Shown piece after piece: positions 20,738 to 45,025 of a stretch of 47,561 nt of DNA; position 1 is the stretch's first letter, and every line of letters begins with the position of its first letter. The stretch is from a phage. The notes below the pieces were generated by a model. That model was not told the origin of the DNA. It searched no databases and saw only the letters and a list, made by a program, of their open reading frames with translations. A program made the translations under genes and the position numbers. The stretch lies in the sequence record PZ324410.1; one strand, 5' to 3'.

Positions 20738-21135
20738 TGCCAGCGAAATTAAGAGGCGTCAGGCAGGCTGTGGAGAGAACTTCGCAAATTGTGGATGAGA
20801 TAATCGCCACGAAAGCTGTGCGTGCGATCAAGTCGGCGACATATATCATCCGCACCGAATCAGCCACGCTAACGCCAATTGATACATCGACTCTGATTAA
20901 CAGTCAGTTTGATACTGTGGAAGTTAGCGGAACGCGAATCACTGGCAAGGTTGGTTATTCTGCAAAATATGCCCTGTACGTCCACAATGCCAGCGGCAAA
21001 CTTACAGGGAAACCGCGCAGCAATGGTAATGGCACATATTGGAGTCCTGGTGGTGAACCACAATTCCTGACCAAAGCAGCGCAGCGCACAAAAGACCTTG
21101 TTGATGGCGTGATTAAGAAGGAGATGACACTCTAA
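20737..21135 (+). CDS. putative neck/tail component (HK97 gp10-like position)
   Basis: 132-aa ORF, coupled. Confidence 0.4.
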   Translation: MPAKLRGVRQAVERTSQIVDEIIATKAVRAIKSATYIIRTESATLTPIDTSTLINSQFDTVEVSGTRITGKVGYSAKYALYVHNASGKLTGKPRSNGNGTYWSPGGEPQFLTKAAQRTKDLVDGVIKKEMTL

Positions 21136-21509
21136 TGAATATGCTTGAACTGGTTGATGCATATCTTCAGGATGCAGGATTGTATGATGGCTGGACTTCT
21201 CAGTTGCAGTTCTGGAATGATACCGGAGATGGCAACGAGCAATTTATTGTCCTGCAATCCAATGGCGGCACACAGGTGATGGATGGCCTCGGCGGTGACT
21301 TCTATTTCTCATTGTATATTGTCGGCAAACATGGACAGTATAACGTGTCGGATGTTGATGCGAAGGCGCTGGAGATTATCGAATACATCAAAACCCATCC
21401 GATTGATTCATGCGTTAACTACATCCAGTTGCAGGCTCCTCTCGGACGACCAATGTTGACGGAAGAGAAGCGCCCTGTGCATGAGTTGCTTTTGCGGGTT
21501 GTGAAATAA
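21135..21509 (+). CDS. putative tail completion/terminator protein
   Basis: 124-aa ORF ending at strong terminator. Confidence 0.4.
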   Translation: MNMLELVDAYLQDAGLYDGWTSQLQFWNDTGDGNEQFIVLQSNGGTQVMDGLGGDFYFSLYIVGKHGQYNVSDVDAKALEIIEYIKTHPIDSCVNYIQLQAPLGRPMLTEEKRPVHELLLRVVK

Positions 21510-21513
21510 ATAA

Positions 21514-21536
21514 AGCCGCATAAAGCGGCTTTTAAT
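21514..21536 (+). terminator. rho-independent terminator
   Basis: agccgc ataa agcggct hairpin then TTTTAATTT. Confidence 0.6.
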
Positions 21537-21537
21537 T

Positions 21538-21614
21538 TGGTGGACACGGACGGATTTGAACCTTCAATCAGCCGATTATGAGTCGGTTGCTTTAACCAAT
21601 TAAGCTACGCGTCC
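21538..21614 (-). tRNA. tRNA with CAU anticodon (Met or Ile2), CCA encoded
   Basis: hand-folded on minus strand: 7-bp acceptor stem GGACGCG/CGTGTCC, D-arm GCTT-AATTGGTTA-AAGC, anticodon loop CUCAUAA, T-loop GGTTCAAATCC; one mismatch each in anticodon and T stems. Confidence 0.6.
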
Positions 21615-22021
21615 ATAAGTGCTGGTTTAAGCATTGCCAGCGTGCTTTCTTAACACCCAGCCCCGTAACCCATACATACCCCTACATATGATTGCGATAA
21701 TGCTGGATGTTAAGTGTTGTGGTGTCCGGTGCTATCCCGGACTGCATTCGTCGCCATGGTGAGCCTTTACCTCACCATCTAGCTCATTCACCTCAACGGA
21801 AAGAGCACTGGAACTTGGGCTGGGTATTACCGCATGTCTTTCAACTTCGAACCAAGGCTGACATTACCCAATGCTCTTACCTGTTGTGTGCCGGTTACGC
21901 GTCCGGCGTCTCTCGACCGCTAATTGTAATTGAAGGATTGGCTGTAATTAAATGAAATCAGGGAACCAATCGCTGTTAATTCCAAATCTACACCACAAAA
22001 TAATCACTGTCAACTATGATG
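21615..22021. other. about 400-bp non-coding region with several perfect hairpins
   Basis: gtccgg-N7-ccggac (21723..21741), atggtgag-N7-ctcaccat (21755..21777), gccgg-ttacgcgt-ccggc; only a weak plus ORF, none on minus. Confidence 0.35.
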
Positions 22022-22687
22022 TTAAATCAAGCCTTCGTCAGTTAGCTTGCCGATAATCCACATCTCTCCTTCAGCATAAAACATAGCTTGTGAGTGCCCT
22101 GTTTCTGTCTCGCGCATAATGCCGTATCCTTTGTCGATGAACCATTGCTGGAAGACTCGTCCACGCTTAACAGAGCGATTGTACACATCGAATTGCTCAA
22201 GCTGTCTGTTTAGCCATACTGCTGACTGTCCAAACTTCTGTGCAACCTGTGTTGCATTGTAAAGATTGTTTCGCTCAACGATGCGATCATAGACATCTGC
22301 TTTTGGTGCCATCTCCTTGTTTTCAAGCGCAAGCTTCTCTTTCTCTTTCTCTGAGGCAAGTAATGCCTCCAGTGCTTCAATATAGTTTTGCGGAAGATTT
22401 GGCTTGCTAACCTGCGATTCCAGTTCTTGCCATCGTCTAATGATGGCAGCGCGCATTTTGATGCTATATCCTGACACCAGAATTAATGTTTCCTCCTTAT
22501 CCAAAAGAAGCATTTGATACGTGCGCCCTCTGCTGTCTTTGTAATCTCCTAACTTTTCAGGAGATTGAATTTCAGCTAACATTTTTCGTATGTCAGCCAA
22601 AACATTGTCATGCCGTTTCCCTGTCAACTCCGAAATCTCACGGCTTGACATGGTTTGCACTTTACCAACATTCATTAATGCGTTCAT
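22022..22687 (-). CDS. Rha/ORF6N-type phage regulatory protein with KilA-C-like C-terminal domain (antirepressor-like)
   Basis: N-terminal SSREISELTGKRHDNVLADIRKM motif; coiled-coil linker; C-terminal KilAC-like segment. Confidence 0.55.
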   Translation of the reverse strand: MNALMNVGKVQTMSSREISELTGKRHDNVLADIRKMLAEIQSPEKLGDYKDSRGRTYQMLLLDKEETLILVSGYSIKMRAAIIRRWQELESQVSKPNLPQNYIEALEALLASEKEKEKLALENKEMAPKADVYDRIVERNNLYNATQVAQKFGQSAVWLNRQLEQFDVYNRSVKRGRVFQQWFIDKGYGIMRETETGHSQAMFYAEGEMWIIGKLTDEGLI

Positions 22688-22826
22688 GATTTCCTCCTTT
22701 GTTTAACTCCATTATCTACATCAACACAAACTCATCAAATCAATCTGCTTATCGTGACAAGCAAGGTTGCTTATACTGCTGTGATATAATCACCACGTTA
22801 GCAGCTAACACAATTCGGAGATCGAA

Positions 22827-23543
22827 ATGGCTATTTGTGCAAATGATAAAGGCGTTCTGGTCGGTCGCATGACCCGACTGTTCCTTGCTGAGGGGTGCGG
22901 TGACGCAGTTCCGGAAGCAGGAGACTGGAAGTATTTAGGCTCAACCACCAGTAAAGGCGTTGACTACTCTCCGCAGACCACCACGTCGGAAGCGGATACC
23001 GCTGGCGGCTTTGTTTCCACTCTCGTTACCAGCTCTGATATGACCATCAGTGCAGAGGTGGAAATCCGCAAGAATGACCCGAGCGATGAGTTTGGCTTCC
23101 ATCGTCTGGTTGAGATTTACGCCACCGAACTGAAAGCGCGTCGCCAGCCTTCCTTGTGGGTGCGTCAGGTGACTGGTGCAACTATCGTTACCGCGTACTG
23201 CAACATCACCAGTATCAGCTATGAAGGTGGCACGAACGACATCGTAACCGGAAGCCTTGAGTTTAAGGTTTACGATTCTGCCAGTGTTACCGTAGAAAGC
23301 CTTGAACCTCTGGCGTTCACTACCGACCTGCAATCAACTGGTACTGCTGGCAGCCCGTTAACTGTTGCTGTTGAAGGTGGCGTCTCTCCTTACACCTACG
23401 TGTGGCGTAAAGATGGCGCGGTAGTTAGTGGTGAATCTGGCGCATCTCTGGCAAGCCCTACCGCTGGCGTGTACACCGTAACGGTGACTGATTCGTCTAC
23501 TGACCCAGAGATTATTATCAGCACGGCTTGCACCGTATCCTGA
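22827..23543 (+). CDS. major tail protein with C-terminal Ig-like domain
   Basis: 238 aa preceding chaperone and tape measure; C-terminal Thr/Ser/Val-rich beta-rich region consistent with Ig-like fold. Confidence 0.65.
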   Translation: MAICANDKGVLVGRMTRLFLAEGCGDAVPEAGDWKYLGSTTSKGVDYSPQTTTSEADTAGGFVSTLVTSSDMTISAEVEIRKNDPSDEFGFHRLVEIYATELKARRQPSLWVRQVTGATIVTAYCNITSISYEGGTNDIVTGSLEFKVYDSASVTVESLEPLAFTTDLQSTGTAGSPLTVAVEGGVSPYTYVWRKDGAVVSGESGASLASPTAGVYTVTVTDSSTDPEIIISTACTVS

Positions 23544-24274: not shown

Positions 24275-24757
24275 TTACTTTTTGCCGTGGTTTTCATGAA
24301 AGTTATAATAAATTTCTGCATTTTTTCTAGCTCTCCCTGCATCATTGATATCACTAAAAAAACCCAATGAAATCTCTTTCTTGTTAACTGATATTCTCGC
24401 CCTCCACTTCCCCATTCTTTTGGACCAGCTAACGCCAACAATACCACTTGTGTTATCTATCCTTTTTGAAAGATTTACACTGTTTTCTTGCCTGCTTACA
24501 ATCCTCAGGTTTTCAATTCTGTTATCCAGCCTGTCATGGTTAATGTGATCAATCTCCATACCGTCAGGTATTGGGCCGTTATGCATTTCCCATATAACTC
24601 TATGCACAAGCTGCGTTTTGCCAAACAAGCTAACCTGCAAATAACCATCTGGTCGAACAGTTCCTGCATTATGACCAGCCATGGCATTTGAAGACCTCCT
24701 TGCTTTCCATTTCAAGGCACCACAATCATATTCAAAAATATCATCCAAAATATTCAT
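24275..24757 (-). CDS. HNH homing endonuclease (HNH + AP2-like)
   Basis: LVHRVIWEMHNGPIPDGMEIDHINHDRLDNRIENLR and GIVGVSW motifs; paralog of 46263..46766. Confidence 0.7.
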   Translation of the reverse strand: MNILDDIFEYDCGALKWKARRSSNAMAGHNAGTVRPDGYLQVSLFGKTQLVHRVIWEMHNGPIPDGMEIDHINHDRLDNRIENLRIVSRQENSVNLSKRIDNTSGIVGVSWSKRMGKWRARISVNKKEISLGFFSDINDAGRARKNAEIYYNFHENHGKK

Positions 24758-24834
24758 CTTAAAACCACCAATCAAGACAATTAAGATACAAATCTACATC
24801 ATATCTACACCATCATCAATTGGTTTTCTCTCTA

Positions 24835-25575: not shown

Positions 25576-27950
25576 TGGCTGAAGAAGTCGGCGGAATTGT
25601 CTACGAAGTCGGGATGGATGTTAAAGGCCTGAAAGCTGGCGCGACAACAGCCAATAAGACTTTAGATGACCTTGAATCATCAACCAACAAAACCACAAGC
25701 GCGCTTGGCAAGCTGGATAAAAACGCCAGAAATGCTGGCAGCGGAATGAAGAATGCTGGCGGCGCAGCTTCAGGGCTTAAAACCAGTATGTCTATGTTAG
25801 CTGGTGCCATCTCAGTGTCATTGATTATCGAATGGGGAAAAAGATTCCTTGAGGTTGCCGATAACATGACTCAGCTTCAGGCAAGGATTGCTCGCCTGTC
25901 AACTGACGCGAAAACCGCGAACGAAACATTCAGTTCACTGGCAAATATCGCCTCAACCACTGGCGCAAGCCTCAGTGAAACCACGAAGCTTTGGGAGACA
26001 TTAACATCATCACTGAAAGAGGCTGGCGCGACGAATGCGCAAGTTCTTAACCTTACCGATACCCTGCAAAAAATAGGTCGAATTGGCGGGTCATCAACCG
26101 AAGAAATGGCGAACGCCCTGCGCCAGTTCGGCCAGTCAATAGCATCTGGCACAATCCGCGCGGAAGAGTTCAACTCCATCCTTGAGCAGATGCCTGAACT
26201 TGCACGCCAGATAGCCGCTGGCCTTGGTATTTCAATGGGTGAACTTCGCGCTAGAATGCTTGACGGAAAACTGACGGCAGAAGATGCATTGAACGCCATT
26301 CAGGACAGAACAAGCGTCGTCAACGCTGAGTTTGAAAAACTTCCTCGCACAATGGATCAGGCCGTTGGTTCTCTGGAAGTTTCATTCTCCAAACTTGTGG
26401 TTGCTGTTAACGATGCTACTGGCGCGTCAAAAACAGCAGTGGAGATTATCGACCAGCTGGCAAAATACATTGATTTCCTCGGCGACAAATCAACCAGCAC
26501 GAGTGATAAAATTCTGTCTCTCGCCACTGTTATTTCCAAGTTAAATCCCGGCGCGTGGGCGCAAATGGGAGTTGATGCGCTTTTTGGTGATGACGACATT
26601 GAGAAGCAGAAGAAATATAACGATCAGGTCGAGCGATTCGTTAAGGCATCGGCGGAAGGTTACGAACAGACAAAAAAACAGGCTGAAGCAACAAAACACC
26701 TGAAGATTGCGCAGGCACCAACCAAAGACAAAAAAGGCAAAGGAAAGGGCAAAAGCGCCGAAGAGCGACAAGCTGAATCAGTGGCTGAAAAGCTGGAGAA
26801 ATTACGCCAGCAAACCATGCTCAATGCCACATCTACCAGCGAACTCTCCCGCGAGCAAGCCATCCTCAATGCGCAACAATCGCTTGGCAAAGCCGCCACA
26901 CAGGAGCAGATAAAACTGGCTGGCGAGTATGCTGCGAAGATTTGGGACCAGAAGAATGCGCTGAAGGAACAGGCGGAAGCGGAGAAGGAAAGGCAGCGCG
27001 TAGAAAAATCATATCAGGGATTACGTGCCATTGCGTCACCAACGACTGGCATTGACAGTGAATACCAGCAACGCATGGCTGACCTTGATGCCTACGCCGC
27101 AGCATATCCGCAGAAAATCACGGAGATTGAGCAGACTCGCGCAGCAATTGAAGCACAATACCGCCAACAGCGAATGGATGCGATGTGGGCTGAATGGCAG
27201 CAACAAAGCCTCGGAGCGCAACTGTTCGGTACGGCGCTTGATTCGGCAATGAGCACGGCATCAAACAGCATAACCGGATTGCTGACAGGCACAATGAGTG
27301 TGCAGGATGCGATGCGCAGTCTAGGCTCTACGGTCCTTAACTCTCTGGTAAATAGTTTCGTCGAAATGGGCGTGCAGTGGGTTAAATCTGCGGTTATGGG
27401 GCAGGCGGCACAGGTTGCGGCAACGGCAACAACAACGGCTGCGCAAACGGCAGGACTGGCAACCACAACAGCAGCATCCACTGCGGCGGCAGCAACCACT
27501 ACGGCGGCATGGACTCCTGCGGCAATCGTAGCATCAATCGGCTCATTCGGTGGGGCGGCTGCAATTGGGGTTGGTGCCGTTCTCGGCGCACTGGCGATGG
27601 GCGTAGCTGGCAAGCGTAAGAATGGCGGCCCTGTTAGCGCAGGAAGCATGTACGAAGTAGGCGAGAATGGCTTGCCTGAGATATTCCAGGCGTCCAACGG
27701 TCGCCAGTACATGATTCCAGGCAACGATGGCTCAGTTATCAGCAACAAAGACCTGACAGGAGGCAGCAGTGGCGTTGTGGTTTATAATAACGTCATCAAT
27801 AACAGCTCTGCTCAGGTTAGCAGCAGAGCCAGAGATAACGGTGATGGCAGCGTGACAATTGAGACTATCGTTAGTGACATCGAAAACAACGGCCCCATAG
27901 GGCAAAGCATTAGCCGCAACTACTCAGCAAACCGGAGAGCAACCGAATAA
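25575..27950 (+). CDS. tail tape measure protein
   Basis: 791 aa, long helical/coiled-coil regions and Ala/Thr/Gly-rich segment with hydrophobic stretch. Confidence 0.8.
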   Translation: MAEEVGGIVYEVGMDVKGLKAGATTANKTLDDLESSTNKTTSALGKLDKNARNAGSGMKNAGGAASGLKTSMSMLAGAISVSLIIEWGKRFLEVADNMTQLQARIARLSTDAKTANETFSSLANIASTTGASLSETTKLWETLTSSLKEAGATNAQVLNLTDTLQKIGRIGGSSTEEMANALRQFGQSIASGTIRAEEFNSILEQMPELARQIAAGLGISMGELRARMLDGKLTAEDALNAIQDRTSVVNAEFEKLPRTMDQAVGSLEVSFSKLVVAVNDATGASKTAVEIIDQLAKYIDFLGDKSTSTSDKILSLATVISKLNPGAWAQMGVDALFGDDDIEKQKKYNDQVERFVKASAEGYEQTKKQAEATKHLKIAQAPTKDKKGKGKGKSAEERQAESVAEKLEKLRQQTMLNATSTSELSREQAILNAQQSLGKAATQEQIKLAGEYAAKIWDQKNALKEQAEAEKERQRVEKSYQGLRAIASPTTGIDSEYQQRMADLDAYAAAYPQKITEIEQTRAAIEAQYRQQRMDAMWAEWQQQSLGAQLFGTALDSAMSTASNSITGLLTGTMSVQDAMRSLGSTVLNSLVNSFVEMGVQWVKSAVMGQAAQVAATATTTAAQTAGLATTTAASTAAAATTTAAWTPAAIVASIGSFGGAAAIGVGAVLGALAMGVAGKRKNGGPVSAGSMYEVGENGLPEIFQASNGRQYMIPGNDGSVISNKDLTGGSSGVVVYNNVINNSSAQVSSRARDNGDGSVTIETIVSDIENNGPIGQSISRNYSANRRATE

Positions 27951-44546: not shown

Positions 44547-45025
44547 GTGAAGTTAAGCGTTATGACCTTGTTGGCGATATGGATGGAAATTGCAACCTTA
44601 ACGAAGCCAGAATGGAACTGTCGGATGATGGTGTTTACGTAAAGCACAATGACTACGCGGCACTCGAAGCCAAATGCACGGCGCTGGCGGCGGAGAATTC
44701 TGGGCTGAAGTCTGGTGCAATCAAGGCCATAGAGGATATTCAATGCTTCTACGATTCGGAAGCCTGGCACGTATCCGAAGATGGGGAAAGCGAGACGGCC
44801 GTTGTTGCACTGGATGATGCAAAAGGTAGTGTTGAGCACTTCGTGCTGAATGTCAAAACCCCGGCTACCTACGCTTCCCTGGCTGAAATTGAACGCAAGG
44901 CAATCCGCAAGTTCATTAACAGCATTGAGCACATCCTGCGTGACAAGTTGTCACCGTATGACACCGAAGAGGTGCTTGAGGCCATGCGTATTTTTCTGGA
45001 AGAACAGGGAGGTGAGCAAAAATGA
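44543..45025 (+). CDS. hypothetical acidic protein
   Basis: 160 aa, about 20 percent Asp/Glu; GGGGGTTAGGG RBS. Confidence 0.5.
   Translation: MSEVKRYDLVGDMDGNCNLNEARMELSDDGVYVKHNDYAALEAKCTALAAENSGLKSGAIKAIEDIQCFYDSEAWHVSEDGESETAVVALDDAKGSVEHFVLNVKTPATYASLAEIERKAIRKFINSIEHILRDKLSPYDTEEVLEAMRIFLEEQGGEQK

Follow-up and report, generated by a model that had tools for sequence, protein, structure and literature searches.

A 47,561-nucleotide (nt) stretch of phage DNA (sequence record PZ324410.1; the whole stretch is called the window below), from a relative of Salmonella phage Skate in the genus Skatevirus, carries between its tail-terminator and major-tail genes a member of what is apparently a widespread, undescribed family of phage RNAs. 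On the minus strand, from about 21977 to 21512, this locus would form one untranslated transcription unit, transcribed by host RNA polymerase from a near-consensus sigma-70 promoter to an intrinsic terminator. In order, the unit would comprise a module of hairpins at its 5' end, a long helix whose interior can be exchanged, a cloverleaf resembling transfer RNA (tRNA), a 3' block and a genuine tRNA with anticodon CAU. We put the probability that the unit is a functional, processed RNA of this phage family at roughly 0.55. Members of the family occur in lambda, HK620, ep3, RCIP0103, St11Ph5, SopranoGao, N4-like phages and Felix O1, and in more than 240 viral contigs. An initial annotation had suggested that the segment upstream of the tRNA may encode a small RNA, which was right in spirit and understated: the predicted product is a multi-domain RNA with its own promoter and a large family.

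Several features mark the unit as a minus-strand gene. Segment 21615-22021, described initially as some 400 base pairs (bp) that are structured and free of a credible open reading frame (ORF), holds short ORFs only, on the plus strand (42, 82 and 34 amino acids). Its minus strand folds better than shuffled sequence (z = -3.06; 0 of 100 shuffles fold as well), and its plus-strand fold is not better than shuffles (z = -1.41). The promoter is 97-100% conserved in relatives, and the same promoter type precedes homologous units in RCIP0103 and other Klebsiella phage contigs; transcription would start at about 21977. The terminator follows directly after the tail-terminator gene, its hairpin is conserved in relatives, and it may also work on the plus strand. 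Three hypothetical ORFs are annotated on the plus strand in Skate (CPT_Skate_053-055) and, together with the short plus-strand ORFs of the window, would suit a locus for small proteins, a reading to which we give hardly any credence: the number, length and frame of the ORFs vary between close relatives because modules are swapped, a PHROG search of the three window ORFs found no match, most relatives' annotators left the region empty, and conservation tracks the RNA helices, not codons.

The arms of the long helix in the window are the canonical pair GGTAAGAGCA...TGCTCTTTCC, which recurs in lambda and in upward of 120 viral contigs. A core of about 100 nt (21892-21782) is 95-97% identical by BLAST in the unrelated Klebsiella phages SopranoGao, LASTA and JD001 and in the N4-like E. 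coli phage St11Ph5; the helix interior is 97% identical in SopranoGao and St11Ph5, with related copies in LASTA and JD001. Many other phages conserve the two ends of this core and have the interior replaced. A pattern scan of viral contigs for the arms, with the central arm sequence fixed in the pattern, returned at least 120 matches. Among the matches listed, at least 73 distinct cores hold dozens (more than 40) of unrelated interiors between identical arms, and an identical interior is also seen with different flanks.

We assessed pairing in 77 distinct arm-plus-flank constructs. Of the helix positions 94.8% pair, compared with 37-64% when the arms are slid as a control; double-sided changes occur at seven pairs, and no shuffle among 500 scores as high as the real arms. 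Because the first pattern fixed the central arm, the analysis was repeated blind to the arms with an independent downstream anchor. Highly variable arms recovered in this way still form helices of 17-20 bp, with a median duplex energy of -21.2 kcal/mol compared with -13.9 kcal/mol for shuffled arms. That the arms vary yet pair implies that structure, not sequence, is what is conserved. At about 20 bp, or some two turns of mostly regular duplex, the long helix is a candidate substrate of ribonuclease III (RNase III). We considered a boxA site (NusB-NusE antitermination) in the canonical 3' arm, which includes UGCUCUUU, taken here to be the core of rrn boxA, and rejected it as a general feature, the arm-blind anchor having revealed wholly different arms. 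A circularly permuted tRNA or a simple pseudo-tRNA was likewise set aside for the interior; the arms are unfit by eye, and ARAGORN and Rfam make no call there.

The element is also strictly oriented. In all 29 instances with a tRNA within 1 kb, the tRNA lies on the strand of the element, and the frequent G.U pairs of the helix and the tRNA-like domain work on that strand only. These observations bear on the idea that the inverted arms act as DNA, either as a recombination or cassette site (attC-like, or like a miniature inverted-repeat transposable element) or as a site bound by protein, with RNA structure incidental. The arms do resemble imperfect terminal inverted repeats, they are present in unrelated phages, and the many interiors exchanged between them, with an interior also recurring between various flanks, would suit a cassette site. 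We nevertheless regard a DNA-level element as very improbable, since the orientation relative to tRNAs is strict, each G.U pair is an A.C mismatch on the other strand, no recombinase is associated among the neighboring genes, and a long-range stem with complementary loops is sensible only in a single strand of fixed polarity.

Downstream of the helix, family members share a second domain. Hairpin 1 (consensus GCGCA-GGCUGA-UGCGC) is followed 40-100 nt on by hairpin 2 (GCCGG-AGAUCAGCA-CCGGC), and directly after hairpin 2 every member has a sequence complementary to the end of the 3' arm together with GUG. We searched for hairpin 2 through its loop and assigned the bases that follow it to the partner strand; 94.5% of cells are paired against 26-50% in slid controls, nine pairs have double-sided changes, and none of 500 shuffles does as well. 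The complementarity holds across 42 different stem sequences. The core of this closing stem is well paired over 7 bp and its 3' strand is abutted by hairpin 2, which together give the geometry of an acceptor stem and T-arm; in certain members the two hairpins are textbook D- and T-arms. The family consensus at position 3-70 is U3-A70. The loops of hairpins 1 and 2, the first of which the search anchor had fixed, are complementary in sequence and may pair, as GCUGA:UCAGC in most members and GUCGA:UCGAC in one lineage; in the window hairpin 1 is replaced, and GCUA (21784-21781) is a candidate partner for UAGC of the hairpin-2 loop. Across more than 200 viral contigs, both the long helix and the tRNA-like domain have strong support from covariation. 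The window copy has the canonical arms, the closing stem, the strand of its tRNA and a promoter of its own, and on these counts belongs to the family.

The modules that flank these two domains are less uniform. At the 5' end, Skate, LPST49, NX263 and the window have a hairpin module that is unrelated to the SsrA-like tag module found at that position in sister alleles (see below). IME207 has a third type of 5' module, with a strong Shine-Dalgarno sequence and a 6-codon mini-ORF encoding MNEISI and a stop, which lie on the minus strand about 60-150 nt past the promoter. The 3' block Z, delimited from the minimum-free-energy fold, is 95-98% conserved in Skate-like relatives that differ upstream, and its 13-bp helix encloses the run GGGG-N7-GGG-N4-GGGG-N2-GGG. 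A motif resembling block Z, UAGGGGUAUGUAGGGGCUACG, occurs in the N4-like phage St11Ph5 (contig L003, about 1772-1796). Inspection by eye gave no support for a G-quadruplex in block Z, for mimicry of repeats of clustered regularly interspaced short palindromic repeats (CRISPR) arrays, as in an RNA anti-CRISPR, or for ToxI mimicry. We rejected a host-derived origin of the RNA, as 5,426 E. coli genomes give no real match beyond a 40-nt piece in six. Among genome-reduced mutants of seszw (MZ375295-MZ375357 and OL9647xx; down to 36.5 kb), all those matched by BLAST retain the RNA and tRNA unit, which says little because the reduction targeted genes, not intergenic DNA.

In lambda, the long helix and the closed two-hairpin domain lie directly after tR', in the late leader (GUUGUGCUG...CAGCACAAC; contig L010 1146-1330, corresponding to about 44788-44970), and the closing stem shows a compensatory G-C/C-G change. 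The late leader of HK620 contains two copies of the arms. This region has no annotation in lambda itself, nor at any of the places that match it in 306 E. coli genomes. Daniels and colleagues reportedly mapped sites of RNase III in the late leader of lambda in 1988. Across the family, the nearest upstream genes on the same strand are mainly of antiterminator Q families, with some CI-type repressors, the downstream genes encode holins, lysozymes and N peptides, and a further context is the neighborhood of N4 gp49. These neighbors place the family in long untranslated leaders of antiterminated operons and in the tRNA or non-coding RNA units of virulent phages. A literature text search found no paper containing the arm sequences, and Rfam at E<=10 gave no match to a ribozyme, a riboswitch, GOLLD, ROOL or HEARO RNAs, Y RNA/YrlA or phage RNAs of the C4/IsrK type.

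In the sister alleles of swi2 and ZCEC08, which share the promoter, helix arms, hairpin 2, block Z and tRNA with the window, a 10-codon SsrA-like tag module stands at this locus and follows the shared promoter directly. Translated from GCA to the stop codon, the tag is ANEEMYLAVA in HK620, RCIP0103 and swi2 and ANDDVVLMAA in St11Ph5 and ZCEC08. Eight variants among the fetched contigs, together with ANDNVFLAVA in Felix O1 (followed by two stop codons) and ANDNTFLAVA in PhiSH19 (followed by one), make ten, all of 10 codons; shuffled sequence yielded no variant at all. A covarying hairpin has the stop codon in its loop, and after it come a hairpin with four types of compensatory pair and an H-type pseudoknot. 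The module is present in 32 of the 249 fetched sequences (the window and 248 loci), in 647 phage records from very different families and in 350 of the 5,426 E. coli genomes, where it lies in prophages and on plasmids of about 100 kb; nowhere is it annotated as RNA. Of the 360 places in E. coli, 219 are on such plasmids (95-115 kb), possibly phage-plasmids, and none carries an RNA annotation. Identity of the module with host ssrA was rejected after comparison in the E. coli genomes.

These tag-bearing RNAs recall transfer-messenger RNA (tmRNA) to a limited degree. Against the Rfam model tmRNA_permuted, better-conserved members score 31 and 26 bits, with the alignment centred on AUAAAUGCAAACGAU; the tmRNA scores of the relatives span 11-31 bits and so miss the gathering score, which is 47. 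None of the tag-bearing RNAs receives a valid call from ARAGORN. The 'tmRNA' calls that it does return, with the implausible tag AKAVRLRKCSFRCGECAG and a stop (swi2; contigs L008 1424-1798 and L228 3200-3574), we judged spurious. In such a call GGGCACA, immediately ahead of the long helix, is matched to the 3' half of the tRNA that ends the unit, giving a G3.U70 pair, which may be chance or an alternative fold. In the tRNA cluster of Felix O1 (contig L247 1330-1775; record 25587-26032), a TTGACA-17-TATAGT promoter, the tag, the long helix and the tRNA-like domain are all present, and this domain, which is not called as a tRNA, has G3.U70 and an ACCA end. Old hypothetical ORFs lie near the Felix O1 stretch, and ORF100 starts inside it. 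No paper containing the tag peptides turned up in a literature text search, and papers that name tmRNA alongside these phage groups do no more than cite ARAGORN. In a 2014 tmRNA census, the only phages credited with ssrA are mycobacteriophages, Bacillus phage G and DS6A, none of them enterobacterial (PMC4131195).

No tag module was detected in the window. An nhmmer search of the whole window with a profile of the tag module gave no match at E<=10, a motif search gave matches at chance level only, and the Rfam tmRNA models gave no match in the window at E<=10. As the profile finds nothing, we take the window to carry a tag-less allele, as lambda does.

The tRNA at the 3' end had been described as an antisense tRNA(CAU) with an encoded CCA and one mismatch in each of two stems, and each of these points is upheld: ARAGORN and Rfam both accept the fold (63.4 bits, against a gathering score of 29, placing it among tRNAs), and the two non-canonical pairs are A27.C43 and A51.G63. 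It is the sole ARAGORN tRNA in the window, and nothing else at 21000-23000 reaches an Rfam gathering score; the other match of low E-value, to Plastid-ycf2 (41.3 bits, gathering score 65.7), is the tRNA locus read on the opposite strand. Decay of the tRNA, which the initial annotation had left open, is not what the relatives suggest, because the copies in Skate, seszw, swi2 and ZCEC08 are 100% identical to it except at base 34 (C or A). The anticodon is CAU in the window and swi2 and AAU in Skate, seszw and ZCEC08. AAU is an isoleucine anticodon that, to our knowledge, bacteria do not normally use. The tRNA has A73, C4-G69, U12-A23, C29-G41, A37 and A38, which we take to be identity elements of E. 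coli tRNA-Ile. Initiator features are missing, G1-C72 being paired and the anticodon stem lacking a run of three G-C pairs, and AUA makes up 18% of the isoleucine codons in the window's long ORFs. The variation between C34 and A34, the presumed tRNA-Ile elements and the share of AUA codons favor a lysidine-type tRNA-Ile2 that reads AUA over a tRNA-Met, and this tRNA probably supplies AUA decoding.

Does the RNA do more than accompany this tRNA? The main rival to a functional RNA is that it is a processing leader only, whose helices provide signals for RNase III and ribonuclease P (RNase P) and protection from Rho and exonucleases, and which is inactive after cleavage. Co-orientation with the tRNA wherever one lies within 1 kb would follow from this, as would the freely exchangeable interiors and a helix of a length that fits RNase III, and in some loci genuine tRNAs begin just 4 nt after the helix; in L019, L064 and L126 they follow it directly. 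LPST49, however, retains the RNA (80% identity over about 400 nt) in the absence of a tRNA, which makes the RNA more than a leader for one, and lambda likewise keeps it without any tRNA. The conserved loops and covarying long-range stem of the tRNA-like domain also exceed what a leader needs, a single tRNA would call for neither so strong a promoter nor so long a unit, and sister alleles conserve a tag frame. We therefore hold a mere leader to be unlikely.

The tRNAs at the 3' end of the unit vary among relatives, being of the Met/Ile type (CAU or AAU), Ser(GCU) plus Arg(UCU), or absent in LPST49. This variation, the mosaic content, the mismatches in the window's stems and the T-arm-like hairpins and tRNA 3' halves in some interiors and neighboring units could instead reflect the wreck of an old tRNA gene array, in which pseudo-tRNAs and recombination scars hitch-hike beside a useful tRNA and essential tail genes. 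Such a wreck would hardly be expected to keep its helices through compensatory changes over hundreds of contigs from many phage families, or arms and loops whose conservation between unrelated phages, at 95-100%, greatly exceeds the similarity of these phages' genes. Its promoter is conserved as well, and a tag frame of constant length, 10 codons, would not survive in ten variants if these were pseudogenes in decay. A wrecked array thus seems to us improbable.

On the reading that the unit is a functional RNA, RNase III would cleave the precursor within the long helix, and the tRNA and the tRNA-like domain would be processed by RNase P, RNase E and 3' exonucleases. This would release the tRNA-Ile2, to serve the phage's AUA-rich genes, and at least one stable tRNA-like RNA that would act on host translation or the ribosome-rescue machinery. 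On this model RNase III and RNase P probably process the RNA, which probably acts on host translation. Every Skate-like phage would have a version of one modular RNA locus at this site, between the genes for the tail terminator and the major tail protein, and the version in the window would be an allele lacking the tag. Alleles with a tag might work as a tmRNA-like rescuer, and those without one as a modulator or decoy consisting of the tRNA-like domain only. For the family at large we offer a more tentative proposal, which we hold to be possible rather than probable: it may be a new class of rearranged phage tmRNA-like RNAs with the tag 5' of a complete tRNA-like domain, whose tag-less alleles modulate or block SmpB/tmRNA rescue or act as decoys for tRNA-targeting defenses, and which are retuned by cassette exchange at the long helix. 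Such a class would span hundreds of Enterobacteria phages, among them Felix O1, HK620 and ViI-like, N4-like and Skate-like phages.

Several observations weigh against a functional RNA in the window or against the tmRNA-like class. In the window copy there is one A.A mismatch in the long helix and another in the closing stem, and the same 4-6 nt would be needed both for the base of the helix and for the stem that closes the tRNA-like domain. The window has no tag module and no CCA after the tRNA-like domain, and its hairpin 1 departs from the consensus; for these reasons, together with the A.A mismatches, its copy could be a weakened allele. Most members lack the alanine identity pair in the tRNA-like domain, and a tag lying 5' of that domain is the topology of no known tmRNA. 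Cleavage by RNase III and RNase P is predicted from helix length and tRNA-like shape only, and cassette exchange at the conserved arms could partly reflect recombination and not selection on each module.

The tRNA, the non-coding segment and an adjacent Rha/KilAC gene had initially been taken for a single antisense insert. This does not agree with the relatives: the tRNA and the non-coding RNA are found at the same position throughout the Skate-like group, and are thus ancestral there, and the Rha cassette alone is extra. In all five relatives compared (Skate, seszw, LPST49, ZCEC08 and swi2), none of which has the cassette, the positions equivalent to 22014 and 22779 are at most 2 nt apart. 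The window is 100% identical to Escherichia phage ECO95 1-6-1 and amounts to essentially its whole genome; the insertion is specific to this phage and S.Kent 1-2-1. The cassette adjoins the -35 hexamer of the RNA unit directly upstream and sits exactly between two divergent promoters, that of the RNA unit and the extended -10 element before the major tail gene. Just upstream of the unit, the Rha/KilAC gene is an accessory gene in its own right and a recent acquisition (a moron), and its transcription may read through into the RNA unit.

The identification of the Rha/KilAC ORF as antirepressor-like was correct at the level of domains. Its matches to Phage_pRha (1.7e-17; 64.2 bits, cut-off 29.9) and ANT/KilAC (1.9e-10; 41.4 bits, cut-off 25.3) exceed the Pfam cut-offs, and it matches PHROG 63, 'anti-repressor Ant', at 8.9e-57. 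The promoter ascribed to it is the weakest of the earlier claims, since the site matches only 9 of 12 consensus positions; the Shine-Dalgarno sequence is strong. An antirepressor had also seemed unexpected in a virulent phage. The nearest homologues (75-83% amino acid identity) belong to the Roi/Ant-like DNA-binding proteins of Jerseyviruses, all strictly virulent, and a Rha homologue is present in 1012 phage records. With such close relatives in virulent phages, the gene is ordinary in this setting, and the label 'antirepressor' probably does not describe its role here.

The features of the locus are collected in Table 1. The minus-strand ORF at 24275-24775 has an HNH-type motif and on that account is probably a homing endonuclease. 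In seszw and swi2, a different HNH gene is inserted between the gp10-like and tail-terminator genes.

Table 1. Features of the RNA locus and its surroundings in the window.
Feature	Position	Strand	Basis or detail
Sigma-70 promoter of the RNA unit, TTGACA-17 nt-TAGATT	22013-21985	-	Promoter scan, 10/12
5' module A	21977-21889	-	Hairpins GAUUGGU...GCCAAUC (21971-21936) and GCCGG-ACGCGUAA-CCGGC (21907-21890)
Long helix, about 20 bp, with bulged A, U.U mismatch and 58-nt interior	21888-21792	-	5' arm 21888-21869, 3' arm 21810-21792
tRNA-like domain (domain 2)	21797-21716	-	Family covariation
Closing stem of the tRNA-like domain, GUUGAGGUG / CACCACAAC	21797-21789 / 21724-21716	-	8/9 pairs form in the window
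Internal hairpin of the tRNA-like domain	21778-21756	-	
Hairpin 2, T-arm-like, GUCCGG-GAUAGCA-CCGGAC	21742-21724	-	Directly precedes CACCACAAC
3' block Z	21715-21615	-	13-bp helix CUUAACAUCCAGC/GCUGGGUGUUAAG round G-tract-rich interior, then hairpin GCUGG...CCAGC
tRNA, anticodon CAU (21575-21577), CCA encoded	21538-21614	-	ARAGORN tRNA-Met(cat); Rfam RF00005
Intrinsic terminator, AAAGCCGC-TTTAT-GCGGCTTT and T-rich tail	21532-21512	-	Terminator scan
Inserted Rha cassette, 764 bp	22015-22778	-	ORF, Shine-Dalgarno sequence and weak promoter-like site
ORF, Rha (N-terminal) and KilAC/ANT (C-terminal)	22687-22022	-	Pfam, PHROG
Shine-Dalgarno sequence of the Rha ORF, AAGGAGG	22699-22693	-	Strong
Weak promoter-like site, TTGATG-16-GATAAT	22738-22711	-	Promoter scan, 9/12
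Extended -10 element, TGATATAAT	22782-22790	+	Upstream of the major tail gene
Tail terminator gene	Left neighbor of the tRNA/RNA unit		PF23842, 3.2e-40
Major tail / tail tube protein gene	Right neighbor of the locus		Annotation in relatives
ORF with HNH-type motif DHINHDRLDNRIENL	24275-24775	-	Probably homing endonuclease

If these readings are true, a stretch left blank in hundreds of phage annotations would be a conserved RNA gene family tied to tRNAs and ribosome rescue, one that includes the classic late leader of lambda and the tRNA cluster of Felix O1. The family would represent a third topology of tmRNA-like genes, would account for the long untranslated leaders of lambdoid late operons, and would offer a testable reason why some phages depend on or manipulate tmRNA. 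Finders of tRNA and tmRNA, and Rfam, would then need a new model, and annotations of therapeutic phages would need updating. For the window phage itself the points are modest: a probable AUA-decoding tRNA, an ordinary, horizontally acquired accessory Rha gene and a tag-less RNA allele of putative activity only.

Among the closest known systems is tmRNA (SsrA), in its one-piece and permuted two-piece forms, and the likeness lies in the sister alleles and many other family members. Their tag has the length of E. coli ANDENYALAA, an alanine resume codon GCA and the ending (L/M)x(A/V)A-stop. As with helix 5 of tmRNA, the loop of a hairpin contains the stop codon, and another hairpin and an H-type pseudoknot come next. 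These RNAs also have a tRNA-like domain in the same transcript, and tmRNA models are their best Rfam matches. In contrast to tmRNA, the family places the tag 5' of a closed tRNA-like domain and not between the halves of the acceptor stem, and lacks G3.U70 except in Felix O1; the window allele, without tag, G3.U70 or CCA, falls outside canonical tmRNA. The ssrA of mycobacteriophage DS6A consists of a tRNA-like domain only, and engineered RNAs made of the tRNA-like domain inhibit tmRNA by titrating SmpB (both as cited in PMC4131195). Like the window and lambda copies, DS6A ssrA is thus a phage tRNA-like domain without a tag frame. The DS6A domain derives from canonical tmRNA, whereas that of the window has its own hairpin pair and loop complementarity, no G3.U70 and no CCA.

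The Rha gene too has a known counterpart, in the Rha/Ant (KilAC)/Roi regulators, with which the window ORF shares the Phage_pRha plus ANT architecture and PHROG 63; in contrast to these, the window has no partner repressor or lysogeny module, and its nearest relatives are virulent. Among RNAs, the RNase III hairpins of phage leaders (lambda N leader, sib, T7 R1.1 and, reportedly, the lambda late leader) resemble the family helix in having about 20 bp with a mismatch or bulge and in their place in polycistronic phage RNA, the family helix lying likewise in untranslated leaders of lambdoid pR'/pL operons. Unlike the family element, classical RNase III sites have no downstream tRNA-like domain. 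The stable RNAs of the T4 tRNA cluster (species 1 and 2, rnaC/rnaD) are structured and are co-transcribed and co-processed with phage tRNAs. They are likewise structured RNAs alongside phage tRNAs; no sequence or Rfam relationship to the window or the family was detected, and we know of no long helix plus cloverleaf layout among them. The intervening sequences of enterobacterial 23S ribosomal RNA (rRNA) have a long stem and a variable interior, spread horizontally and are excised by RNase III. They share with the family element a conserved stem around a variable interior, and whereas they lie in rRNA helices, the family element lies in phage leader and tRNA transcripts, where it is coupled to a tRNA-like domain.

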